NCBI GenBank assembly: GCA_037441385.1
Contig: JBBISH010000031.1
Location: forward strand, 1 to 52,880
DNA: 52,880 nucleotides
Source of the DNA: Myxococcales bacterium
Lineage (GTDB): Bacteria; Myxococcota_A; UBA9042
Direction of reading: 5' to 3'
The stretch's first letter is position 1. Every line of letters starts with the position of its first letter. Under the pieces are notes generated by a model. It made no database searches, was not told the DNA's origin, and worked only from the letters and a program-made list of their open reading frames with translations. Below, in pieces: positions 3,140 through 48,745 of the stretch. A program made the position numbers and the translations under genes.

Positions 3140-4429
3140 ATGAAGAAGTGCGGTCAACTCAAGTTCATCGACTTGTTCTCGGGCGCTGGGGGCATGAGCT
3201 TTGGGTTTGCCAGGCACCCAATGTTCCGTCCGGTCTTTGCGGTCGATGCTCAGTGCGGGAAACCGAGTAGTGGGCCCGGTTCACTGGAATGCAACCTGAC
3301 ATATACGAAAAATATCGGCCTTGAGGTGCGCGAGGCCGACCTTGCTTCCTATGCTCCGGAACTACTGCTGGCAGAGTCTGGATTGGCACCTGGCGAACTC
3401 GATGTGCTGATATCATGCGCACCTTGCACTGGATTCAGCCGGACATTGCGAAAGAACCACCTCGAAGACGACGAGCGAAACAGCCTGGTACAGCGTACTG
3501 GGGACTTCGTCGCACTCCTCCGGCCCCAGATCTTGGTGATGGAGAACGCGAGGGAGCTGATCCGGGGAAACTTTTCGCACCACTACCACAAGCTTCGGGA
3601 ACGGCTTGAGCAGCTTGGGTATTCGGTAAGCGGCGAGATTCACATGCTGTCGGAGTTCGGATTGCCCCAAGTGCGCGAACGCGCCTTGATAATTGCTCAC
3701 CGCGATCACGGGCAGATCCATACCTTGCGAGACCTCTGGAGCGGATATAGGCCGTCAGCGTCCGCAATCACAGTGCGACACGCGATCGGTTCGCTACCGC
3801 CGATCGCCGCCGGCGTCGAAAACGCGGCCGATCCGATGCACGTGGCCCCGAACATGACCGGGCTCACTGCCGAGCGCCTTGCCATGACGCCACACGACGG
3901 TGGCTCCTGGCTGGACTTGGCCGGCAACCCACGGGGTGAGCACTTGCTGACGCCAGCGATGAGGCGGTCTGCCGTTGCGGGCGCGTGGGGCGACCACCCG
4001 GACGTATACGGGCGGCTCTGGTGGGACCGGCCGTGCGTGACAATCAAGAGGGAATGCGCGCATGTTGGAAATGGCCGCTACGCACACCCAGAACAAGATC
4101 GGCTCTGCACGGTTCGCGAACTCGCGTTGCTCAACGGATTTCCGTCGGACTACGAGTTTGTCGGACGTTCACTTTCAAACAAATATCGCCACATCGGTGA
4201 TGCCGTGCCACCGCTGATCAGTCATCAACTCGCGCACGCGTGCCACTGGATGCTGACCGGAGTGCGCCCTGGCCTCAAGGATTGCCTGCTGCGCGGTACC
4301 AGTCTGTCGTCTGGGGACGTCATCAGTGTTGACGACGAGTCCCTCCTCCCGCTATTCGCGAACAAGGGATACCAATCGGCTCGACCGGCTGCCCAGTCTG
4401 CCAGTCGAATCAGCGCGCCACCGGGATAG
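3140..4429 (+). CDS. DNA (cytosine-5)-methyltransferase of a Type II R-M system
   Basis: Motif I DLFSGAGG, IV SCAPCTGFS, VI MENA, VIII PQVRER, IX RLCTVRELALLNGFP, X YRHIGDAVPP. Confidence 0.95.
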   Translation: MKKCGQLKFIDLFSGAGGMSFGFARHPMFRPVFAVDAQCGKPSSGPGSLECNLTYTKNIGLEVREADLASYAPELLLAESGLAPGELDVLISCAPCTGFSRTLRKNHLEDDERNSLVQRTGDFVALLRPQILVMENARELIRGNFSHHYHKLRERLEQLGYSVSGEIHMLSEFGLPQVRERALIIAHRDHGQIHTLRDLWSGYRPSASAITVRHAIGSLPPIAAGVENAADPMHVAPNMTGLTAERLAMTPHDGGSWLDLAGNPRGEHLLTPAMRRSAVAGAWGDHPDVYGRLWWDRPCVTIKRECAHVGNGRYAHPEQDRLCTVRELALLNGFPSDYEFVGRSLSNKYRHIGDAVPPLISHQLAHACHWMLTGVRPGLKDCLLRGTSLSSGDVISVDDESLLPLFANKGYQSARPAAQSASRISAPPG

Positions 4430-5162
4430 TCCAAGTCGCGTGCAGTTTGCAGACTCGAACGTCAAGGGAAGTTACTGTGACCTTTTCGACGCTTCCGTCG
4501 AGTCGCAGCTTCCAGGCAGGCTTGCCCCGGAAGTGGACGTTGGCACTCGTACTGCCGTTCTCGGTCTTCGAAGAAAACGCGGCCGGCTCTAGATCGCCCG
4601 CAGCCTGCAGTATCTCTAATGGAATTTCCAGAAGCTCGTAGCGGACGTGGGCGGGTTGGTCAAATGCCCTGAGGCAGAGCACACGGTCATACTTCTTGAA
4701 GTGTTCGAGAATCGAACTGGTGACACCTGCAACGAAATCTTCGGGTGTGCGACACCCGCGAATCCAGCGCGCCTCCATCAGCTTCGAGATTGTGACACGG
4801 GCCGGCCTGATGTCGGCCGACGCTTCCGTCTTCAGCGAATAGCGAACGCCGTCCACAGTCACGTCTGCTCCGGCAAAGGTCTGGCTTCGGCCCACGGCCG
4901 CCAGTCGGCCCGAGGAGCGGGCTGAGGCCGCGAACGCGAACTCAAAAGGGCGCTTGCTAAGCTTCTCATCATGTGTGGCGTGGTGAATTAGTAGTCGATT
5001 TCTAAAGTCTTCTGCGAACGCTGGCGTGACAATGTCGGAATCTGAGAGTTGCTCCGTGATAGGCCGTTGCAGAACCTCGGCAATTTCCAGAAGGACTCTG
5101 ATCTGAGCGTCAGTGAGGCCTGACAAAGCCGTGGCCAGCCTGGATTTCGGCGATTTAGGCAT
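4410..5162 (-). CDS. Type II restriction endonuclease, SmaI-like PD-(D/E)xK family (250 aa)
   Basis: RLLIHH, FEFAF, GADVTVDG..SLKTEA, ISKLME, LEHFKKYDRVLCLR, YELLEIP, LDG..EK, CKLHATW mirror blocks of R.SmaI as recalled. ATG 5162 overlaps the C-gene stop. Confidence 0.8.
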   Translation of the reverse strand: MPKSPKSRLATALSGLTDAQIRVLLEIAEVLQRPITEQLSDSDIVTPAFAEDFRNRLLIHHATHDEKLSKRPFEFAFAASARSSGRLAAVGRSQTFAGADVTVDGVRYSLKTEASADIRPARVTISKLMEARWIRGCRTPEDFVAGVTSSILEHFKKYDRVLCLRAFDQPAHVRYELLEIPLEILQAAGDLEPAAFSSKTENGSTSANVHFRGKPAWKLRLDGSVEKVTVTSLDVRVCKLHATWTIPVAR

Positions 5163-5403
5163 CAGACCCCTGCAAAGCTCGCCGAAGGAGCTGATCTGGG
5201 GCGATGCCGACGGCCTTTGCCACGGCAATGAAGACCAGAAGAGTAGGCGATTTGCGGTCGTTCTCAATGTCGCCGACGTAGGTAGGGTGAAGCCCCGCGA
5301 TGGCTGCCACCTGCTCCTGCGTCAGGCCCGCATCATGCCGGGCCTGACGCAAGGCCTGCCCGACCGAACCTGAAGCTGAACTTGCGCGGCCATTTTTTCC
5401 CAT
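5155..5403 (-). CDS. Controller (C) protein, XRE-family HTH
   Basis: GQALRQAR..AGLTQEQVA..AGLHPTYVGDIE..RKSPTL. Lies directly upstream of and overlaps the endonuclease gene. Confidence 0.9.
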   Translation of the reverse strand: MGKNGRASSASGSVGQALRQARHDAGLTQEQVAAIAGLHPTYVGDIENDRKSPTLLVFIAVAKAVGIAPDQLLRRALQGSDA

Positions 5404-6044: not shown

Positions 6045-6282
6045 GCGGCCGATCGACCGGCCTTGGGCGGAACCGACGCCCAGCAAGGGCGGGTTGCCTG
6101 CCCTGGTGGGGCGGGTCGTGCGACCCTGCAGGGTGGACCGACTGCCCTCCAGGGGCGGGCCATCCGGGTAGGTAAGGTGCGCTCCGTGCCCGGTAGCGGC
6201 GGCCGCGCGACGGCCGCCCCGCGAAAGGGGGGCGTAACCCGGAGGGCGGTGGCGCGGGTGGGCCGCAAGTCGCCGCGCCACA
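6045..6282 (+). ncRNA. Candidate structured non-coding RNA/DNA element (series of GC-rich hairpins), family unknown
   Basis: About 8 adjacent stem-loops. G-U pairs are consistent only with the + strand. No credible ORF. Confidence 0.35.
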
Positions 6283-6498
6283 ACCAGGCACCCTTCTTCG
6301 GCCCAGCCGCGTCGCCGGGCGCGCAGGCCGGCAGGCCGGAGCGCCTAGCACCCGGTCCGCGCGCAGCGCGGATTCGCCCAACCGCCGTCACGGGCTCCAG
6401 ACTGCCGACCGGTCCAGAACCGACGCCAGGCGCCAGACATCCGCCCAAGCCGGCCGCCGAGCACTCCCAACAAAACCGATCAATTTCTCAAATAAAAC

Positions 6499-31631: not shown

Positions 31632-34244
31632 ATGCCGCGAGCACAAAAAAACGCAAAGAAATCCGATAAGGCGCCCGTCGAATTGCGCAGTGTCGCCCGG
31701 CCGACTGGATTGGATGCGGCGCAGTGCACTACGCAAATTGCCTTGGACAAGCTCAAGTTCGACACGACGGACGAAGTCGAGCGCATGCCCAGCGTGATCG
31801 AGCAAGAACGCGCGATGGCCAGCCTGGAACTGGGCTTGTCGGTGAACCGCCCGAATTACCATGTCTACGTGGCGGGACCGTCTGGAACGGGCAAGCGCAG
31901 TCTGTTGCGGGCGATGCTCGACAAGCTGGCGCCGGCGCGCAAGACGCCGCAAGACTGGTTGTACCTTCACAATTTTGCCGACAAAGACGCGCCGATCGCA
32001 GTGGGCCTCAAGGCTGGCGAGGGCCGCGAACTCAAGAAGGCCCTAGACAAGTTGTTGGAAAAACTCCAGAAAGAGATTCCGGGGTCGTTCCACTCGCCCG
32101 AGCACCAGCTGAAGTTGCAGCACGCGGTGTCGCGCTCGCAAATGGCGTCGACCGATGCCTTTGTGGCGCTGTCGCGGCAGGCCGAGGCGCTGGGTTTTGT
32201 GGTGCGCGCGACCAAGGATGGCGAGTTGGAGACGCTGCCCGTGGTGGGCGGCAAGACCCTAAAAGACAAAGATATCATGGCTCTGCCGGAAGCGGAGCGC
32301 AAAGCCATCGACAAGCGTCGCGAGGATCTAGAGCCGCTCTTTACCGCCTTTGTCCAGGCCAACCGCAAGATCGAGCAGCTCACGCAAGATCGCATCGAGA
32401 AGGTGCAGCGCGAGATGGCTGAGCGGGTGACGGCCAATCTTTTCAGTGATTTGCGTGATCGGTTCAAGTCGGGCGGGCGCAAACTGGGCAGCTTTTTCGA
32501 TGCGCTGCGCGACGACGTCCACGCCAACCTGACGCGCTTCTTGCCCGATCACGACGCGGAAGAAGAAAAGAGCAGTCCTCGCGAGGAGTCCGATCCCTTC
32601 GTCGGCTTCCGCGCCAACCTCGTGGTCGATCACGGGCCCGAAAAAGGCAGTGGATCCAAAGCAGTCGCTCCCAAAGGCGCGCCGGTCGTGTTCGAGACCC
32701 ACCCCACCTACTACCGCTTGTTCGGCCGCATCGAACGTCGCGTAGAGCAGGGCATCTACTTCACCGATCACACCATGATCCGCGCCGGTTCGCTGGCCCA
32801 GGCCAATGGCGGCTTCTTGGTGTGCCACGCGGTCGACTTGGTGCAGGGTGTGGGCGTGTGGGAGAACCTGAAGGTCACCCTGCGCAACGGCGAGCTGTCC
32901 ATCGAGGATCTAGGTGAAATGGCAGGACTTCTGCCTACTTCGGGCCTGAAGCCCGAGCCGATTCCGCTCCAAGTCAAGATCGTGCTGATCGGCTCGAACT
33001 CGCTGTACCATGCGCTGTACCGCGGCGACGACGACTTCCGCAAAATCTTCCGGGTCAAGGCCGATTTCGACCACGAGATCCGCCAGTCGCCCGATGCCAT
33101 CCAGAAGTACGTCAGCTTCATCGCCACCGCGGCCAAGAACAACAATTGCCGGCCCGTCGACCGCGAAGGGGTCGCGGCGATCCTGGAACACGGTGCGCGG
33201 CTGGTCGATTCGCAGCGCAAATTGACCTTGCGTTTCAACCGTATCTCGATGCTCCTCATCGAGGCCGACTGGTTTGCCGCCAAGTCGCGCAGCAAGCACA
33301 TCACGCGCAAGCATGTCGAAAAGGCCATCGCCCAGCGCACCCAAAGCTCGGCGCTGATCGCCGACAAGATGCACGAGGACTTGCTCGACGACCAGTGGTT
33401 GATGGAGGCCAATGGCACCGAAGTTGGCGTGATCAATGGTCTTGCCGTACTGAGCGTCGGCGAGCACGAGTTCGGCCGGCCGTTCCGCATCACCGCCCGC
33501 TGCTTCGCCGGCACGGCGGGCATCGTCAACATCGAGCGCGAAGTGGCGATGTCGGGCGAGATACACGACAAAGGCGTGCAAATTCTCTCGGGTTTCTTGG
33601 GTGATCGCTTCGCGCAGAAGCACCCCTTGTACTTGACGGCGACGGTCACTTTCGAGCAAAGCTACGGCGAAGTCGACGGCGATTCTGCTTCCAGCACGTG
33701 GCTTTACGTGATCCTGTCCGCCATCTCGGGCGTTCCCATCGCGCAGGGCATCGGCGTCACCGGATCGGTCAATCAACTGGGCCAGATCCAGCCGATCGGC
33801 GGGGTCAACGAGAAGATCGAGGGCTTCTACCGCTTCTGCAAGGCCAAGGGACTGACGGGCGAGCAGGGCGTGATGATTCCTTGGCAGAACGTGCAACATC
33901 TGGTTTTGGATAAGGAAGTGCGCGAGGCGATCGCCAAGGGCCAATTCCATGTCTGGCCGGTTCGAACGGTGGACGAAGGCATCCAGATCCTCACTGGGGT
34001 CGAGGCCGGCGTACCCGGCGCGGATGGGCTGTACCCGCAGGGTACGTTGATGCGCAAAGTGGCCGAACGTCTTGATGAATTGCGCCGACATGCCGCCACC
34101 GGCAAGCCTTCTTCGGGCAAGCGCGGCTTGGTCGGGGGCAGCGGTGTGCGCGCCCGTCGCCGCCACGAAGACGAGTTTGAAGAGGGGGCCGAGGACGACG
34201 GCGACGACGAGATGCGCGGCCTGGGCGAATGGGGAGACGATTGA
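31632..34244 (+). CDS. Lon-like protease (AAA_32/LonC type with S16 protease domain)
   Basis: GPSGTGK, ANGGFL, LKPEPIPL.VKIVLIG, INGLAV, HDKGV, EQSY..VDGDSAS (Ser), GGVNEKIEG (Lys). Confidence 0.92.
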   Translation: MPRAQKNAKKSDKAPVELRSVARPTGLDAAQCTTQIALDKLKFDTTDEVERMPSVIEQERAMASLELGLSVNRPNYHVYVAGPSGTGKRSLLRAMLDKLAPARKTPQDWLYLHNFADKDAPIAVGLKAGEGRELKKALDKLLEKLQKEIPGSFHSPEHQLKLQHAVSRSQMASTDAFVALSRQAEALGFVVRATKDGELETLPVVGGKTLKDKDIMALPEAERKAIDKRREDLEPLFTAFVQANRKIEQLTQDRIEKVQREMAERVTANLFSDLRDRFKSGGRKLGSFFDALRDDVHANLTRFLPDHDAEEEKSSPREESDPFVGFRANLVVDHGPEKGSGSKAVAPKGAPVVFETHPTYYRLFGRIERRVEQGIYFTDHTMIRAGSLAQANGGFLVCHAVDLVQGVGVWENLKVTLRNGELSIEDLGEMAGLLPTSGLKPEPIPLQVKIVLIGSNSLYHALYRGDDDFRKIFRVKADFDHEIRQSPDAIQKYVSFIATAAKNNNCRPVDREGVAAILEHGARLVDSQRKLTLRFNRISMLLIEADWFAAKSRSKHITRKHVEKAIAQRTQSSALIADKMHEDLLDDQWLMEANGTEVGVINGLAVLSVGEHEFGRPFRITARCFAGTAGIVNIEREVAMSGEIHDKGVQILSGFLGDRFAQKHPLYLTATVTFEQSYGEVDGDSASSTWLYVILSAISGVPIAQGIGVTGSVNQLGQIQPIGGVNEKIEGFYRFCKAKGLTGEQGVMIPWQNVQHLVLDKEVREAIAKGQFHVWPVRTVDEGIQILTGVEAGVPGADGLYPQGTLMRKVAERLDELRRHAATGKPSSGKRGLVGGSGVRARRRHEDEFEEGAEDDGDDEMRGLGEWGDD

Positions 34245-34741
34245 TGAGCGACCGCGCGGTCTTGCAGGCCATGCTTGCCCGATGGCTGGTGGCCCTGAAT
34301 CACCGTGGCCAGGGGGTGGCCGCCGCCGTGGCGGACCAGGTCGCTGTGCAGCGCTTTGGCTTCCACTACCAGCGGGGCGAGTTGGTCGAGGAACTGCACG
34401 GACCGACCGAGGTGGCACAATGGCTAGCCCGGACCGCCCCCGTGGTGCGCTTTGAGTTGGACCCGGGCGAACCCGTCCAAACTGGGCCAGGTGCCTGGCA
34501 AGTTCGCTATGTCGTGAGTGCTCCCGACGATTTTCTGGGCGGCGGCCTGTGGGACATTCGGCTCGACGACCACGGCCTGCTCAGGTATCTCGGCCATCAT
34601 CCTGACGATCTGGCGCCGGAGCACTGGGGGCCGCCGCCCGCGCACGCCGACCACGATCAAACCGTCCATGATCAGACCGTCCATGATCAGACCGTCCATG
34701 ATCAGACCGTCCATGATCACAGGGACCACTCAGCCCACTAG
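34244..34741 (+). CDS. Hypothetical protein with His-rich repeat tail, translationally coupled to the Lon-like gene
   Basis: TGATG overlap at 34242-34246; C-terminal (HDQTV)x4 HDHRDHSAH. Confidence 0.7.
   Translation: MSDRAVLQAMLARWLVALNHRGQGVAAAVADQVAVQRFGFHYQRGELVEELHGPTEVAQWLARTAPVVRFELDPGEPVQTGPGAWQVRYVVSAPDDFLGGGLWDIRLDDHGLLRYLGHHPDDLAPEHWGPPPAHADHDQTVHDQTVHDQTVHDQTVHDHRDHSAH
34651..34719 (+). repeat. 15-bp tandem repeat CCATGATCAGACCGT, about 4.6 copies
   Basis: Units start at 34651 (2 mismatches), 34666, 34681, 34696; partial unit at 34711. Confidence 0.95.
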
Positions 34742-41039: not shown

Positions 41040-42146
41040 ATGAAGCGTTATCTGAATCCGGCTCTGGCCGCTGCGGGTCTGTGCGCCGCCTTGGCCTTCG
41101 CCGGTTGCGACTCGGGCACCGGCTCGACCAACACCAGCAGCGCCGCCGACACCACCCAGGGTGGCACGGACACCAAGGTCACCGACACCACCAAGGCCGA
41201 CACCGCTGCCCCCGACACCAGCACCGGCGGCGGCGACACGACCACCACCGACACTGCCAAGACGGACACCGCCAAGACGGACACCGCCGACACCACGTCG
41301 TCGGTTTGTGATCCCGCGTGCGCCGCTGGCAAGTACTGCGATCTGACCGCCAAGCCCCCGGTTTGCAAGGACATGACCTGCAAGCTGCCCGACAAGTTTG
41401 GCGCCACCACCCAGAAGGCCAGCAAGCTGGAGTTGCCGGGCGCCGGCAGCGGCTGCGACCTGAACGGCGACGGCAAGCCGGACAACGCCCTGGGCAGCGG
41501 CCTCGCGATGCTGCTGGGCCAGGCCAACGACGCCCTGAAGAAGACGATGACCGAAGGCAAGCTGGTCATCCTGATGAACACCGACACCTTCAAGTCGGAC
41601 GGCAGCGCCTTCAGCATGGACATGCTGATCGGCGATCCCGACGCCAGCAACGCGACCTGCGACTTCACGTCGGACAGCGCGAACTGCAAATACACCGTCT
41701 CGCCCAACAGCTACGACATGACCTCGGCCGCCGCGACTTGCCCGGCGCTGATCAACTTCCCCAACGCCAAGGTCACCGGCGGCAAGCTGAGCGGCGGCGG
41801 CGCCAACCAGAAGTTCACGCTGAACCTCCCCGTGGCGGGCGTGGCCCTGTCGCTGACGATCACCCAGGCTCAGATCCAGGGCGACGTCAAGGGTGCATGG
41901 GATTCGACCAGCAACGGCCAGATCTGCGGCGTGCTGACCAAGTCGGACCTCGAGAAGGCCATCAACTCGGTGCCGGATGAGCAACTCGCCGGTATTGGCA
42001 TGGACAAGGCCACGGTGATCCAGCTGTTCAACAGCATGGTGACGCCGGACTTCTCGACCACCGGCGGCGCCAACGACGCCTACTCGGTCGCGATCTCGTG
42101 GGAGTCGGTCAAGGGCCAGATCACCGGCATGACCCCGGCGAAGTAG
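41040..42146 (+). CDS. Secreted lipoprotein, Cys-containing, with Thr/Asp-rich linker
   Basis: Lipobox FAGC, low-complexity DT linker, DLNGDGKPD Ca-binding-like loop; GAGGAG RBS; strong codon bias. Confidence 0.85.
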   Translation: MKRYLNPALAAAGLCAALAFAGCDSGTGSTNTSSAADTTQGGTDTKVTDTTKADTAAPDTSTGGGDTTTTDTAKTDTAKTDTADTTSSVCDPACAAGKYCDLTAKPPVCKDMTCKLPDKFGATTQKASKLELPGAGSGCDLNGDGKPDNALGSGLAMLLGQANDALKKTMTEGKLVILMNTDTFKSDGSAFSMDMLIGDPDASNATCDFTSDSANCKYTVSPNSYDMTSAAATCPALINFPNAKVTGGKLSGGGANQKFTLNLPVAGVALSLTITQAQIQGDVKGAWDSTSNGQICGVLTKSDLEKAINSVPDEQLAGIGMDKATVIQLFNSMVTPDFSTTGGANDAYSVAISWESVKGQITGMTPAK

Positions 42147-42420: not shown

Positions 42421-42493
42421 GGGCGAATAGCTCAGGGGTTAGAGCTTCGGCTTTACACGCCGCGGGTCGCAGGTTCGATTCCTGCTTCGCCCA
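42421..42493 (+). tRNA. tRNA-Val(TAC); CCA not encoded
   Basis: Acceptor GGGCGAA/TTCGCCC, D-arm GCTC/GAGC, anticodon loop TTTACAC, T-arm GCAGG-TTCGATT-CCTGC. Confidence 0.95.
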
Positions 42494-42541
42494 CCGTCGT
42501 TGATGCCAGGGTCGCACCCCGAATCGCCCAGGTACCGTCAT

Positions 42542-42618
42542 GGAGTGGTAGTTCAGTCGGTTAGAACGCTGGCCTGTCAAGCCAGAGGTCGCGGGTTCAA
42601 GTCCCGTCCGCTCCGCCA
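42542..42618 (+). tRNA. tRNA-Asp(GTC) with encoded CCA; probable integration site
   Basis: Acceptor GGAGTGG/CCGCTCC, anticodon arm CTGGC-CTGTCAA-GCCAG, T-loop TTCAAGT, 3' GCCA. Confidence 0.97.
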
Positions 42619-42731: not shown

Positions 42732-43742
42732 TTAGCGGCGCCGCCGGTCCCCGCCGGCTGCGACGCGCAGGTCAAGTTGGTTGAGCGCCGGCTGCGCCTC
42801 GGGCGAGCCGATGTAGTGCTTGCGGGCGGTGCGGCCGGCGTCGGCGTGGCCGAGCAGGCGGCCCACATCCGGGGCTTGCAGGCCGCCCAGCTCGGCGCAC
42901 AGGGAGGCGTAGGTGTCGCGCAGCCCGTGGGGGCTGACCGGGTCCAGACCGGCGGCGGCACACACGCGGATGACCAGCTTTTCCAGCCACGAGCTGTGGC
43001 GCATCAGCGACTGGCCCGCCTTGGGCCGGGGCCGGGCGAACACGAGCGCGGTCGCCGGCAGGTCCAGCACCAGCGCGGTCAGCTCGGGCCGCAAGTCGCG
43101 CGGCAGGCCCACGGTGCGGCGGCTGCTGGCGGTCTTGACGTTCCAGCCGTCGTCGCCATCGGCGGCGCAGGGGCGCACCCACAGGCGGCCCAGCTCCAGG
43201 TCGATGTCGGCGGCGCGCAGGTTGCGGACCTCGCCGCTGCGCATGCCCGTCAGCAGGGGCAGCTGGGCAGCGACGCGCTCGGCCAGGTCGCAGAGCTGGT
43301 TGCAGGCCTTGAGGTAGCGCTCCACCTCGCCGACGTTGCGGAGCTGCCGCTTGCCGCGGCCGATCAGCGCCGCCGCCTTGCGCCCGCACCAGGGCAGGTC
43401 TTCCTTGTCGATGGCCTTGGCCGGGTCCTGGGCGAGCAGGCCGCGCCGCCACGCCCAGTTGAGGAACTCGCGCACGCTGTGGTAGCGGCTGCGCTGGGTG
43501 GCCAGGGCCAGGTGGGCGACGGCCCCCAAGTAGCGGTACAGAAACGCGGTATCGACCGAGCTGACCGGCGCTCGGGGCGCCAGCAGCGCGAACTGGCCCA
43601 GGTCCAGCTTGCCGGTGCGGTTGACCGTGCGCTCGCTCCAGCGGCCCCGGCTGACCTTGAACTCGATGAAGGCCGCGACCGCCAGGTCGAGCTGCATCGC
43701 CGGGCTCAGAGCGATCGGGGTTTTGGGGAGCAGGTCGGTCAT
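42732..43742 (-). CDS. Tyrosine recombinase / phage integrase
   Basis: Complete catalytic set: TGMRSGE (R), VKT (K), HGLRDT (HxxR), LLGHA (H), KHY (Y); GAGGA RBS. Confidence 0.93.
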   Translation of the reverse strand: MTDLLPKTPIALSPAMQLDLAVAAFIEFKVSRGRWSERTVNRTGKLDLGQFALLAPRAPVSSVDTAFLYRYLGAVAHLALATQRSRYHSVREFLNWAWRRGLLAQDPAKAIDKEDLPWCGRKAAALIGRGKRQLRNVGEVERYLKACNQLCDLAERVAAQLPLLTGMRSGEVRNLRAADIDLELGRLWVRPCAADGDDGWNVKTASSRRTVGLPRDLRPELTALVLDLPATALVFARPRPKAGQSLMRHSSWLEKLVIRVCAAAGLDPVSPHGLRDTYASLCAELGGLQAPDVGRLLGHADAGRTARKHYIGSPEAQPALNQLDLRVAAGGDRRRR

Positions 43743-44153: not shown

Positions 44154-44573
44154 CTAGGCGCACACCGTATCCGTCATCCCGAACTGGCGAGCGTACGGCT
44201 GCAGCTCGGCCTCGGCGACGCTGCGCGCCTTGCACACCGGAAGATCGCGCAAGCCATTGAGCCGGAAACAAACGTGCTCTCGACGCCGCGGCGCGTACAT
44301 GGAGTCCAGCTGATTCCATCCGACCAGGTAAGCCAGCCCAACTTCGGGCGACCACGCGATGACGCCGCGGCTCTCCAGTTCGCGCAGGCTGGCAACAACC
44401 TCGTCGCGGGCCTGCGTCGAGCGCGTGAGTGCCTCGGACAGCAGGTCGGGCGTTGCAATGACCGTTCCGTCTGCTCGGGACGAGATGTAGCGAAAGTACA
44501 TGTACATCGACCTGGACATGAGCGTTTTCAGTCCCAAGGTCCGCAGGTGCTTTTCGCGTTCACTGAGCTTCAT
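44154..44573 (-). CDS. Phage protein resembling the N-terminal winged-helix of replisome-organiser/initiator proteins
   Basis: Y..ISSRADG.V....LL....EV..SLREL..RGVI....LAYLVGW pattern (recalled resemblance only). Confidence 0.5.
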   Translation of the reverse strand: MKLSEREKHLRTLGLKTLMSRSMYMYFRYISSRADGTVIATPDLLSEALTRSTQARDEVVASLRELESRGVIAWSPEVGLAYLVGWNQLDSMYAPRRREHVCFRLNGLRDLPVCKARSVAEAELQPYARQFGMTDTVCA

Positions 44574-44602
44574 GACATACCACCAAGGTTGAGGTTAAAC
44601 CG

Positions 44603-44899
44603 ATGAACACTACTGAACTACGCCGCCGAATGAATCTGTTCATCGCCGGCAAGGACTTGGATGACGCTGAGATGTACCCGGCCGCTGCGCCGGACCTGCT
44701 GACCTACGGGCTTGAGGAAGCGGGAGACCTGCTTGGCGTCTCGTTCCGCGAGACCCGAGAGGTTCGGCTGATGGTCGCCTGCGGCGCGCTCCAGGGCGTG
44801 CGCGGGCCGGGAGGGCATCACGCAGTGCGCGGCAGGGAAGTCGACGCCATCAACGGCATCCGCCGGACCCGGATTCGGGAGCGTGGCGGCGCGGCGTGA
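44603..44899 (+). CDS. MerR-like/excisionase (Xis/BldC-type) HTH protein
   Basis: YGLEEAGDLLGVS...VRLMVACGAL.GVRGPGGHHAV..REV; GAGGT RBS. Confidence 0.6.
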   Translation: MNTTELRRRMNLFIAGKDLDDAEMYPAAAPDLLTYGLEEAGDLLGVSFRETREVRLMVACGALQGVRGPGGHHAVRGREVDAINGIRRTRIRERGGAA

Positions 44900-44941
44900 G
44901 GGCTGGGAGCGGTCGAGCACTGGTTGCCTCCTGGTGACCCC

Positions 44942-44970
44942 AGGATGCGCCGGTCCGTTCCGGGTGTCAA
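44942..44970 (-). promoter_or_regulatory. Leftward sigma70 promoter
   Basis: Minus strand TTGACA-N17-CATCCT, followed by AGGAGG and a GTG at 44920. Confidence 0.6.
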
Positions 44971-45002
44971 TACCTTTAGTCCTGCGCGAATGGCATGGAC
45001 GC

Positions 45003-45011
45003 TGCTATACT
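45003..45011 (+). promoter_or_regulatory. Extended -10 promoter of the tandem-HTH gene
   Basis: TGcTATACT just upstream of GGAGGT RBS and ATG 45026. Confidence 0.5.
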
Positions 45012-45025
45012 TGCTGGAGGTGGCC

Positions 45026-45511
45026 ATGGCGGCCGATGACAACAAGCAATCCATGACCGAGTTCTTTCAATCAGTGGGCTTTGTTACGGTCGTTCAAGCA
45101 GCTGAGCGCACTGGCGTGGCCCACCAGAAGATCTCGCAATGGGCCCGCACCGGCGAGATCACCGCGAAGTTCGTTGGCCGCCAAGCCGTTCTGCCCGAGT
45201 GCGCCATCGAAGAGATCCAGGCGATCGCGGCGAACTGGACGGGCGAAAACGATGGACGCAAGGCCAACGTCTACAAAAGCGTCCTGCGCGAGCAACTCGC
45301 CGACTTCTTGACCCTGACCGACGCCGCGCCGCTGGTGGAGCGGGACGCGATGACTCTGCGCCGCTGGATTGCCTCCGGGAAGCTCGACGGCTACCGGTTC
45401 GGGCGGCATCAGGTGTTTGTCAAGCGCTCGGATATTGAGGAGATTCGCGCGAACGTGGCGGCGGGTCGCGGGCCGTTCGAGCGGGCGGAGTCGAGCGGGC
45501 GGGAGCCGTGA
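45026..45511 (+). CDS. Tandem excisionase-type (HTH_17) DNA-binding protein
   Basis: Two domains: FVTVVQAAERTGV...ISQWARTGEI.AKFVGR and FLTLTDAA.LV....TLRRWIASGKL.GYRFG..VFVKRSDI. Confidence 0.85.
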   Translation: MAADDNKQSMTEFFQSVGFVTVVQAAERTGVAHQKISQWARTGEITAKFVGRQAVLPECAIEEIQAIAANWTGENDGRKANVYKSVLREQLADFLTLTDAAPLVERDAMTLRRWIASGKLDGYRFGRHQVFVKRSDIEEIRANVAAGRGPFERAESSGREP

Positions 45512-46071: not shown

Positions 46072-46518
46072 TTACGGCGTAGCACCTCCGAATGGCTTTT
46101 GCAGCTCGGCCGGCTCCTGGCCGGTCAGGCAGTACACCTCGCCCCGCTTCTCGAACCAGTTGGCTCGGCGGTAGACGGCGGCGCGAATGGTATCGTCCTT
46201 GAACCGCAGCTCTGGCCACCGCCGCTGAAACAGGCTGACGATCTCGACGAGTTCGAGAGGTCCCTCGTCGCGTAGCAGAGCGACCACGCCGTGTGACGCT
46301 GGCGGGCCAGCCAAGCCGCCTGTGGCAAGCGGCAGCTCCTGAGCGCCGGACGTGGCCTTGGTCGTGGCCTTCTTCGACTTGGTGTCGGCGTCGCGCTCGA
46401 AGTCCGGCAGATGAACCCGGATCTGGCTGACCAGGGCGTCGGCTTGGCGGCGAACGTTCGCCAGGGCCTTCATGGCGGTCGCGAGTTGTTCGATGTGGTC
46501 TGGCGTCAGCGTGGCCAT
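46072..46518 (-). CDS. Phage protein: N-terminal coiled coil plus C-terminal winged-HTH-like domain
   Basis: AGGAGG RBS; VVALLRDEGPLELVEIV...TIRAAVYR..FEKRGEVYCL. Confidence 0.7.
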   Translation of the reverse strand: MATLTPDHIEQLATAMKALANVRRQADALVSQIRVHLPDFERDADTKSKKATTKATSGAQELPLATGGLAGPPASHGVVALLRDEGPLELVEIVSLFQRRWPELRFKDDTIRAAVYRRANWFEKRGEVYCLTGQEPAELQKPFGGATP

Positions 46519-46536
46519 GTGAACCTCCTGGACCAC

Positions 46537-46585
46537 AGGATATTCCGCCCACCCATGACGCGCAACTAATTGTTTTCAATTAGTT
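46537..46585 (-). promoter_or_regulatory. Leftward promoter with adjacent perfect palindromic operator
   Basis: Minus strand TTGCGC-N17-TATCCT (46565-46537); palindrome AACTAATTG-TTTT-CAATTAGTT at 46564-46585. Confidence 0.6.
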
Positions 46586-46636
46586 TCCTATGCCGACGAG
46601 TTTTTACACGGGGTGAGACAGCGGTATGACGTGAGC

Positions 46637-46652
46637 CTGAACGCTCGTTCAG
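46637..46652. promoter_or_regulatory. Myxococcus-type LexA (SOS) box
   Basis: CTGAACGCTCGTTCAG matches 16 of 17 positions of the M. xanthus consensus CTRHAMRYBYGTTCAGS. Confidence 0.65.
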
Positions 46653-46722
46653 TGCCGGCCCCAAGACGCAACAGGCCCGCCACCACGGTAGCAGGCCTGC
46701 GCTCCAGGGTGCCCCGCCGGAG

Positions 46723-46992
46723 CTAGCAATGCCAAACAGTGCTGCGCGGTTGCAGGCTGGTGCGCCACAGCAGGCGGACCGAGCGCAGGGCGGTGGTGTC
46801 GGCGCGGGCCTGCAGCGCGATGACCTCCAGGTCGACCGGGGCGAGCTGGTAGGCGTGGACGGGCAGCGGCGCCGGCTGGGCCTGCACGGCCTGGGGCGCA
46901 GCGGTCTCGCCGGTGTCGGTGGGCGGCGGGGTGCGCTCGCAGGCGGCGAGCAGCGCCAGGGCGGCGCAGGTGATGAGCAGGGCACGGAGCAT
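46723..46992 (-). CDS. Small phage lipoprotein
   Basis: Signal peptide with lipobox LAAC; GAGGT RBS. Confidence 0.65.
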   Translation of the reverse strand: MLRALLITCAALALLAACERTPPPTDTGETAAPQAVQAQPAPLPVHAYQLAPVDLEVIALQARADTTALRSVRLLWRTSLQPRSTVWHC

Positions 46993-47590
46993 GGGCTACC
47001 TCGACGTCGGCCCGGAAGTGGGCGCCTGCCGAGCGTAGCGCGCCGCGGCGGCCGGACGCAGGGCAGTGGTGCCGGCGCGCCCGGCTGGGCCCGGACCTCC
47101 ATTCACGACGCGGTAGCCCGGAGACCGTACCGCAACTGCTGGTTTTCTCACCCCGTCTTGGGCTTGGTCCTGCGGTGCCCGACCGTGCCGGCAGGCACGG
47201 CCTCAGTGCGTCCGGACCGGATGCCCCGCGCAGGGCCGCTTTTGCCCCTAGAACCGTTTTGCCGGGTGCAGGGTGCGGGGTGGGGCGGAAAATGGCTCCT
47301 ACCCGGCAAAGCGCTCGCGCACGGGGCATCCGTGGGGGTGGGGCGCCGGAGGGGTCGGCGTGGTGAGCACGGCGAGCGCGGTTAGAACGACTGGAGCGTT
47401 GGGCCCGGCGGGCCAGCCTGGACCGGGTAGACCTGGGGTCGAAACTGGACCCTGCTCTACGCCGAAGGGGTAGGTTGGGTTTTAGGACAAGTACTGAAGG
47501 TAGGGAGTAGACCTAATTGACCTACGGGACCTTAACGCGCGCGCGCACGAGAGGGGGGTGGCGACACCCCCCCTCAACACCCTCCCTGAA

Positions 47591-47698
47591 CACCCCCGGT
47601 GTACAGGGGGAGTGTGCACCCCCGGTGTACAGGGGGGGTGTACACCCCAGGTGTACAGGGGTGGTGTGCACCCCCGGTGTACAGGGGGAGTGTACACC
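47591..47698. repeat. Four 26-bp tandem repeats (iteron-like), consensus CACCCCCGGTGTACAGGGGGRGTGTR
   Basis: Units start at 47591, 47617, 47643, 47669; TGT(A/G)CA core occurs twice per unit. Confidence 0.95.
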
Positions 47699-47940
47699 AA
47701 GATCGCACCTAAAGATTTCATGCACATGTCAAAAGATCTCCCATTTCGACTCGTGCTTCAAAGCTGCGCGGAGCTGCGCAGGGCTTCGCACGTCGACCTC
47801 TACACGGACACCCCAGCGGACCACCCACGCAGTCACGCACGCACTGACCACCTGAGCACCATGCCGGCGCGCAAACTTTTCGCGAAAGTTTTCGCAAAAC
47901 TTTTGGCGAGATCAGCACCAGATTGGTCCCAATGCCGAAG

Positions 47941-47982
47941 TTATCCCCAAGTTATCCACAGGATCATCAAAAGTTATCCACA
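47941..47982 (+). promoter_or_regulatory. Cluster of DnaA boxes
   Basis: TTATCCCCA (47941), TTATCCACA (47952), TTATCCACA (47974). Confidence 0.8.
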
Positions 47983-48129
47983 GGCTATCCGTGACGCGAT
48001 CCGTAACGATCTCAACTGCGATCTCAACGGACATGCAAAAAGCGAACTTCGGCCGTCGTCGGCCTGCAGCAGCGACGGCGCCCAGGCGGGCAACGGCCGA
48101 TAAGAGGCTTTATGTCAACTAGTTGAACG

Positions 48130-48402
48130 TCAAACGCCGGCTCGCGCCGGGCACCGCTCGGACAGCGCCGCCCAGGTCACGACGGCGCCGCACAGCCGGC
48201 AGCGGGCAGGTACGGCCGCAAGCGGGTGGTGGCTCGGCAGGTGGCCGGCGCGCGGATAGCGGGCATCGAGTGCAGGGGTTGCCGTCGTCGCACGCGGCGG
48301 CGCGTCCGTCGAGCGGCCGAGCTGGGCGGTGTCGGCGGTGCGCAGCGTGGGCGGCATCGGCAGCATCCAGGGCCAGGCATCGGCAGGGCGGGTCAGCGAC
48401 AC
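48130..48402 (-). CDS. Phage hypothetical protein with His/Cys cluster (possible zinc finger)
   Basis: GTG overlapping the upstream small ORF; H..SHH...CRLCG...CP. Confidence 0.4.
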   Translation of the reverse strand: MSLTRPADAWPWMLPMPPTLRTADTAQLGRSTDAPPRATTATPALDARYPRAGHLPSHHPLAAVPARCRLCGAVVTWAALSERCPARAGV

Positions 48403-48497
48403 CAGCGGGAACTCGCGAGGTCGCACAGAGCGAGCCAGAGGCCGTGCCAGACAGAGCGGTCGGTGGCGCAGGCCCACAGGTAGGCAAGGGCGTTCAT
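48393..48497 (-). CDS. Putative 34-aa hydrophobic peptide
   Basis: ATGA overlap with the holin-like stop; MNALAYLWACATDRSVWHGLWLALCDLASSRWCR. Confidence 0.4.
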   Translation of the reverse strand: MNALAYLWACATDRSVWHGLWLALCDLASSRWCR

Positions 48498-48745
48498 TGC
48501 GGCCGAGGCGTGACCACGTTCTGCTGGTCGATGGGCGTGGGGTTGGCGGCCTGGCGGAAGTACACGGCCAGACCACCCAGGCCGGTGACGACCACGCCGA
48601 CGACCTCGTCGCTCAGCACGGCGGCGACCTGGGCCGCGATGTCGGGCGGCAAGTACTTGGCGAGTTCCTTGGTGAGCACGACCGCGACGATGGCGGCGAC
48701 GGTGCGGTTGGTGCGGCTCTTGGTCACGGTCTTGGCGGCGGGCAT
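48494..48745 (-). CDS. Holin-like membrane protein
   Basis: 83 aa, K...KSRT N-terminus, two hydrophobic helices, R....TPI end; GGAG RBS; near the endolysin. Confidence 0.6.
   Translation of the reverse strand: MPAAKTVTKSRTNRTVAAIVAVVLTKELAKYLPPDIAAQVAAVLSDEVVGVVVTGLGGLAVYFRQAANPTPIDQQNVVTPRPQ

Follow-up and report, generated by a model that had tools for sequence, protein, structure and literature searches.

A palindromic 26-bp repeat array in non-coding DNA of an integrated phage-like element, a candidate iteron-type replication origin

Results

Gene neighborhood of the array

The stretch of DNA that was analyzed (the window, 52.9 kb) carries host DNA up to tRNA-Val and tRNA-Asp at 42421-42618, followed by an integrated element that continues past the window end. 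To the left of the repeat array described below, several small genes follow the integrase, and the following genes of the element were considered in the analysis.

42732-43742, - strand: tyrosine integrase, assigned using Pfam and PHROG, beside tRNA-Asp
44154-44573, - strand: 139-aa winged-helix protein beside the integrase module; candidate for a repressor or an origin binder
44924-45511, + strand: 195-aa protein with two excisionase-type HTH_17 domains; candidate tandem-repeat binder
46072-46536, - strand: orphan 154-aa protein, apart from the lipoprotein-like gene the nearest credible gene to the left; candidate array binder
46723-46992, leftward: lipoprotein-like gene

The leftward gene that begins at 46992 has the array about 600 bp upstream. 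To the right of the array, all on the - strand, two small membrane proteins, a sub-threshold CHAP-domain protein and three tail-like proteins are encoded. On thin annotation, the element is plausibly a prophage. No initiator, helicase loader or primase was recognizable among the 42 window proteins using Pfam or among the 24 that were scanned against PHROGs, and no ParA, ParB, ParM or terminase was found among the 42 proteins.

The second-lowest G+C spot of the window (49%) was located at 44483-44662, between the 139-aa winged-helix gene on the - strand and a 98-aa open reading frame (ORF) on the + strand (44603-44899). The translation of this ORF appears HTH-like by eye and gave no Pfam match; G+C-based gene calling favored the overlapping - strand ORF 44618-44920 over it. 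This spot (near 44574-44603) may be the lysogeny switch.

Elsewhere in the window, a C-5 cytosine methylase (+ strand) and a SmaI-family endonuclease (- strand) are encoded at 3140-5267 in an island of lower G+C content (59-61%, compared with about 67%), and this gene pair is probably an acquired type II restriction-modification system. A 368-aa protein with a lipoprotein-like signal sequence and a Thr/Asp-rich low-complexity region is encoded just before the tRNA genes (41040-42146); it matched no Pfam or PHROG family.

Anatomy of the array

Repeat and pattern searches resolved the array into the following parts, none of which was assigned to a strand.

47551-47586: decayed left array edge, consisting of a G6/C7 hairpin (47551-47575) and two degenerate C-type 13-mers; one copy at 67%
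47587-47698: core array of four 19-bp palindromes and an extra half-site
47587-47605: palindrome 1, 1 mismatch
47613-47631: palindrome 2, 0 mismatches
47639-47657: palindrome 3, 0 mismatches
47665-47683: palindrome 4, 0 mismatches
47691-47698: extra half-site

Tandem Repeats Finder reported the array at 47590-47698 with a period of 26 bp, 4.2 copies, 87% matches and a score of 176, the top score among 41 rows for the window. The protein database places the proteins of the window on a single contig of 52880 bases; the window may thus be an assembled contig, in which case the copy number of the 26-bp repeat is uncertain. The second-highest score (125) belongs to a 15-bp tandem repeat at 34647-34719 (4.9 copies, 94% matches), located at the 3′ terminus of ORF 34229-34741.

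Eight intact cores, spaced 13 bp apart, were found between 47600 and 47696: six copies of TGTACA (starting at 47600, 47626, 47639, 47652, 47678, and 47691) and two of TGTGCA (47613 and 47665). A degenerate ninth core, TGAACA, starts at 47587. The array unit consists of a 19-bp hyphenated palindrome, TGTRCACC-N3-GGTGTACA, and a 7-bp G-rich spacer. Three palindromic registers are possible, of which the C-centered TGTRCACC-N3-GGTGYACA is clearly the best: its matches at 47613, 47639, and 47665 are perfect and the one at 47587 has 1 mismatch, the four being spaced at exactly 26 bp, while G-centered registers need 2-3 mismatches. Allowing at most three mismatches, seven matches to the palindrome were obtained against 0.82 expected, a number reached in none of 100 shuffles, and no copy was found in the rest of the 52.9-kb window. 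Within the unit, GGTGTACAGGGG is unchanged in all four copies and variation is confined to positions 3, 4, 11, 24, and 25 (5 of the 26 columns). The array is real and non-random, and is best read as four 19-bp hyphenated palindromes with 7-bp G-rich spacers. As the 26-bp period corresponds to approximately 2.5 helical turns, successive palindromes face opposite sides of the helix. The hairpin at 47551-47575, which was retained in both the MFE and the centroid folds of DNA and RNA, is a diverged copy of the G-run/core/C-run segment of the array, to which it is connected by the two degenerate 13-mers.

These results confirm what a preceding sequence-only reading had described. The 26-bp array with its TGT(A/G)CA cores, the hairpin, a (CG)5 tract and GACCT repeats were all present at the coordinates given, and the palindrome matches at 26-bp spacing bear out the view that the array is a direct repeat and a chain of inverted repeats at once. 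The same reading had set a CRISPR array aside, rightly so, since no gap separates the units and the G-rich 7-bp spacers belong to the repeat.

It had also held that no credible ORF spans the array. Three mechanical ORFs do cross it (47558-48103 and 47517-47855 on the + strand, 47482-47727 on the - strand), but a codon-position G+C signal of coding was absent across about 47000-48490 and the array-spanning ORFs had no PHROG or Pfam match, so that the claim stands. The array is embedded in about 1.4 kb of non-coding DNA. A hidden gene considered at 46729-47385 (+ strand) was rejected, its translation being Arg/Gly-rich and without a PHROG match.

Flanking DNA, A+T-rich stretch and DnaA boxes

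The following features were mapped on both sides of the array; where no strand is given, none was assigned.

47451-47484, + strand: terminator-like hairpin with a T-run after it, shortly upstream of the array
47510-47545: three GACCT-containing 9-bp tandem repeats (starting at 47510, 47519, and 47528), then (CG)5 at 47536-47545
47699-47867: flank of 58% G+C abutting the last palindrome, with a short palindrome inside at 47765-47790
47868-47909: 12-bp A+T-rich repeat, 3.4 copies, found using Tandem Repeats Finder; candidate DNA-unwinding element
47871-48050: 180-bp stretch with the lowest G+C content (46.7%) of the 52.9-kb window
47941-47982, + strand: three DnaA boxes in the same orientation, at 47941 (1 mismatch), 47952 and 47974 (both perfect)
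48049-48100, - strand: 18-nt inverted repeat with a T-run on the - strand

On the left, the hairpin at 47451-47484 is weak evidence of a terminator, as two terminator-like sites were found against 1.4 expected. Short G-rich repeats were also seen on the + strand at 47260-47345, in the left, G+C-rich portion of the non-coding DNA (three copies of TGCAGGG, and an 11-mer G-run motif occurring twice, 58 bp apart).

On the right, the G+C fraction falls to 0.58 for 47699-47860, compared with 0.668 for the whole window. Of any 100 bp in the window, 47884-47983 form the least stable duplex (-134.9 kcal/mol; the mean is -162.6, with an sd of 7.0), and the 12-bp A+T-rich repeats are located almost entirely inside this weakest stretch. 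The window minimum falls here at the 100-bp and 180-bp scales, and at 47689-47988 at the 300-bp scale. The A+T-rich repeats, the lowest-G+C stretch and the DnaA boxes lie about 170-350 bp to the right of the array.

The number of DnaA boxes in the window is unremarkable (4 vs. 2.3 expected), whereas their clustering was reached in none of 500 whole-window Markov simulations and none of 50000 local-composition simulations. The boxes follow an 11-bp phase, which is extended by 5-of-9 matches at 47985 and, nearly in phase, at 47997. Separately, blastn matched the cluster at 47938-47990 with 85-90% identity to four phage records (H6-H9), T7-like phages of Shigella and Enterobacter, within genome bases 19-123 at their start, which are terminal regions.

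Judged from its position and T-run, the 18-nt inverted repeat at 48049-48100 may serve to terminate the leftward lysis/tail operon. GC skew showed no switch at the array site. An enrichment of GATC was considered as evidence and rejected, the motif occurring 6.3 times per kb throughout the window and other 350-bp windows holding more.

Search for relatives

The exact two-site pattern gave no match in GTDB genomes (one per species, 185,579 species), a collection that does not include the source genome. A blastn search with 47400-48110 against phages and plasmids returned nothing on the array, part of which may have been masked by the low-complexity filter; the nine phage records and one plasmid record obtained all matched only the DnaA-box stretch (query 533-591).

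Related loci were collected using an alignment of the 340-aa tail-protein family as query, comprising 16 of 18 proteins (the partial sequences P0007 and P0010 were left out). Forty-two stretches were matched, giving three loci which have only three tail genes in common with the window and in which large proteins with weak baseplate matches are encoded upstream of the relatives of the tail-like proteins. A search of related prophages for analogous arrays beside DnaA boxes had been suggested. None was found: no array, DnaA box or analogous repeat was present downstream in the three loci, of which only L002 extends far enough to be informative, and L002 diverges from the window directly after the shared genes. 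Only 17 relatives of the tail proteins were found among 5.8 billion protein clusters, with closer ones (P0003-P0006) being 66-87% identical and located on contigs of up to 33 kb, and a tblastn search with the 421-aa tail protein against phages gave no match.

In L002 itself, four copies of a GGGCCACAC-containing repeat were observed at 6114-6290, beside an apparent 3′ tRNA part and a 234-aa gene. These are probably arm-type sites at the attachment site of a different integrated element.

Candidate binding proteins

Three small proteins of DNA-binding type are encoded within 3.5 kb of the array, and none is tied to it. The 195-aa protein matched Pfam HTH_17 in two stretches (E 2.8e-13) and an excisionase/regulator PHROG; as a speculation, its two domains would suit a 26-bp unit made up of two 13-bp sub-repeats. 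For the 139-aa protein, the AF2 model (pLDDT 75.5) has winged-helix topology. Its best PDB matches were MarR-type regulators, none at E ≤ 0.001, and atlas leads to N-terminal domains of replisome-organizer type were weak. Besides itself, it had three matches in 1.84 billion representatives; P0022 aligns throughout, and P0024, a repetitive, non-bacterial-looking protein, was left out. The 154-aa protein found only itself among proteins of near or longer length. An atlas lead pointed to HARE-HTH, with a score slightly above those of the 139-aa protein leads, and the AF2 single-sequence model was too poor for a structure search (pLDDT 50). Neither the 139-aa nor the 154-aa protein showed similarity to P4 alpha.

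Discussion

Comparison with known systems

The closest architectural parallel is the origin of phage lambda. In the part of PMC5043065 dealing with it, ori-lambda is described as four inverted repeats of a 19-bp sequence which bind O dimers, followed by a 40-bp A+T-rich region; binding of initiator (O) dimers by these iterons is likewise stated in a passage of PMC7466680. In the lambda record, four 18-bp iterons are annotated between 39034 and 39118; their starts are 20, 24, and 23 bp apart, and an A+T-rich tract comes after them. The array shares with this origin four tandem hyphenated inverted repeats of 18-19 bp (here with 0-1 mismatch per site), C-run/G-run arms, and a tract of lower G+C content on one side. 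Next to the array, the flank has 58% G+C compared with 66.8% overall, and the minimum of 46.7% lies 170-350 bp away. Lambda iterons are located inside the O gene, while the array lies in non-coding DNA and no O-like gene occurs among the 42 proteins. The spacing here is 26 bp with G-rich spacers, as opposed to the A-rich ones of lambda; a phased DnaA-box array is found nearby; and there is no sequence similarity, as blastn of the array region against phages gave no lambdoid match.

Plasmid origins offer a second parallel. According to the section of PMC5043065 on plasmids, iterons there are "mostly direct repeats", in contrast with ori-lambda, classical iterons are helically phased, and a P1-type origin has the order DnaA boxes, A+T-rich region, iterons. 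The same order of elements, including host DnaA boxes, A+T-rich repeats and an array of putative initiator sites, is found at the present locus. In contrast with these plasmids, its sites are palindromic with a period of about 2.5 turns, and no Rep-family gene is present among the 42 proteins.

The satellite phage P4 is a precedent for an origin outside coding DNA and apart from its initiator gene, which in the P4 annotation is some 2 kb away. The P4 alpha primase-helicase binds type 1 octamers. These octamers, GGTGAACA/TGTTCACC, are found there in both orientations and agree with the array half-site at 7 of 8 positions, a resemblance that may be chance. Three short tandem "type 2" repeats lie on one side of the octamers, as the three GACCT repeats do here, again by resemblance only. 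However, the P4 octamers are irregularly spaced, as opposed to the regular 26-bp array; moreover, neither an alpha-like protein nor a second crr-like cluster was found in the window, beyond which the element extends. Dispersed palindromes of the REP/BIME kind do not account for the array either, with no copies outside it in 52.9 kb and none in the GTDB representatives.

The array as a possible part of a replication origin

The array is tentatively read, with less than even confidence and from sequence features, as the initiator-binding (iteron) part of the replication origin of the integrated phage-like element. Sites of dimer type, an easily melted segment with A+T-rich repeats, and phased DnaA boxes together make up standard origin anatomy, which makes an origin the most likely function. 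In such an origin, dimers of a sequence-specific DNA-binding protein encoded by the element would occupy the four 19-bp palindromes. Host DnaA would oligomerize on the phased boxes 240-400 bp away and, together with the palindrome-bound dimers, would distort the DNA; the intervening duplex, the least stable of the window, could then open and allow helicase loading.

Several observations weaken this reading. No initiator gene was found in the window, while the initiator genes of lambda and of iteron plasmids contain or adjoin the iterons. The period of 26 bp, or about 2.5 turns, differs from the helical phasing of classical iterons. The distance of approximately 170 bp from the array to the A+T-rich repeats is larger than in lambda, and the G+C minimum does not abut the array. 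Comparative support is lacking, and GC skew shows no switch. The DnaA boxes and the low-G+C stretch could form an origin or a promoter by themselves, in which case the array might have a different role.

The strongest rival, although in itself unlikely, is that the palindromes are an operator array, that is, cooperative sites for a regulator of the element (the 139-aa, the 154-aa or the double HTH_17 protein), which would control the leftward lipoprotein and 154-aa genes or shield them from transcripts running on out of the late operon. Dimeric helix-turn-helix regulators typically recognize sites with dyad symmetry, such as these 19-bp ones, and proteins of the HTH_17/Xis type are cooperative binders of tandem repeats. 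Three proteins of DNA-binding type are encoded nearby, and the array lies downstream of the lysis genes and upstream of the leftward gene. However, no sigma-70-like promoter was found in 46500-48700 (0.2 expected), though promoters of the host may differ, and no copy of the site occurs at the probable lysogeny switch near 44574-44603 or elsewhere in the window. The G-run spacers and the 600 bp to the nearest start codon would also be atypical of an operator. Less likely again is a role of the array as RNA or single-stranded DNA hairpins, be it a transcript-stabilizing or -terminating element or a small RNA, or the absence of any function, the array being a recent tandem duplication. Predicted folding is strong (RNA of the + strand -102.1 kcal/mol, z -4.5; - strand -93.7, z -3.0; single-stranded DNA -51.3, z -3.7), and the A/G variation at half-site position 4 preserves A-U or G-U pairing on the + strand, but palindromic arrays fold well by construction. 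A sub-threshold Rfam match to ivy-DE (RF02999) scored 28.8 bits against a gathering score of 41.4 and was rejected as chance; this RNA is reported only from pseudomonads in the portion of the source concerned with it (bioRxiv 10.64898/2026.09.16.751967). None of the 14 weak Rfam matches reached threshold, and neither promoter evidence nor dispersed REP-type copies were found.

The sequence-only reading had left the choice between a replication origin, a partition site and a packaging site. Of these, the origin is the best supported, through the dimer-type sites, the least stable stretch and the DnaA boxes, while partition and packaging are without gene context. The array is very unlikely to be a site of centromere-like or pairing type, at which a small DNA-binding protein would spread or would pair (handcuff) copies of the element. 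Several plasmid centromeres (F sopC, pSK41 parC) are built of tandem repeats with an inverted repeat in each, and the array is likewise a direct-repeat array and an inverted-repeat chain at once. The parS sites of extrachromosomal mycobacteriophage prophages are repeat arrays too, as described in a passage of PMC7157519. However, no ParA, ParB or ParM match was obtained, and in known systems the centromere adjoins the par operon. With a tyrosine integrase beside tRNA-Asp, the element is integrated, unlike those plasmids, and needs no partition system. That a small terminase recognizes the array for packaging (as a pac or cosB-like site) has a slighter chance still. The array does lie just beyond the lysis genes, and the sites that terminases recognize often consist of several short repeats outside coding DNA, but no terminase gene adjoins it: it is flanked on one side by lysis and tail genes and on the other by genes of lysogeny type, and terminase genes, if any, would be located beyond the window end. 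DnaA boxes, moreover, have no known role in packaging.

Returning to the origin, a more specific and quite improbable version of it is a hybrid origin without an adjacent initiator gene, in which a small orphan winged-helix protein of the element would act on the palindromes together with a filament of host DnaA. The winged-helix protein might build a complex resembling the lambda O-some on palindromes facing alternate sides of the helix, as the 26-bp, 2.5-turn period would place them, or else might drive cruciform extrusion of the quasi-palindromic chain. Opening of the DNA would be passed on to the host DnaA filament, nucleated on the oriC-like phased box array. If true, this would describe a temperate phage replicating by means of host DnaA and a minimal specificity factor of its own.

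The sequence-only reading had further seen an unusual architecture and the best candidate for an undescribed system in the window. This went too far, as ori-lambda already combines four tandem dyad iterons with an A+T-rich tract and iteron plasmids share the order of the elements. Every component of the locus has a well-studied precedent and no new category is opened. The locus is quite possibly, though with somewhat less than an even chance, a further iteron-type origin in a very poorly sampled phage lineage. If confirmed, it would combine palindromic iterons of lambda type with an oriC-like DnaA-box array outside any gene, and would provide a replication origin, possibly a cloning replicon, for very poorly known phages of uncultured high-G+C bacteria.
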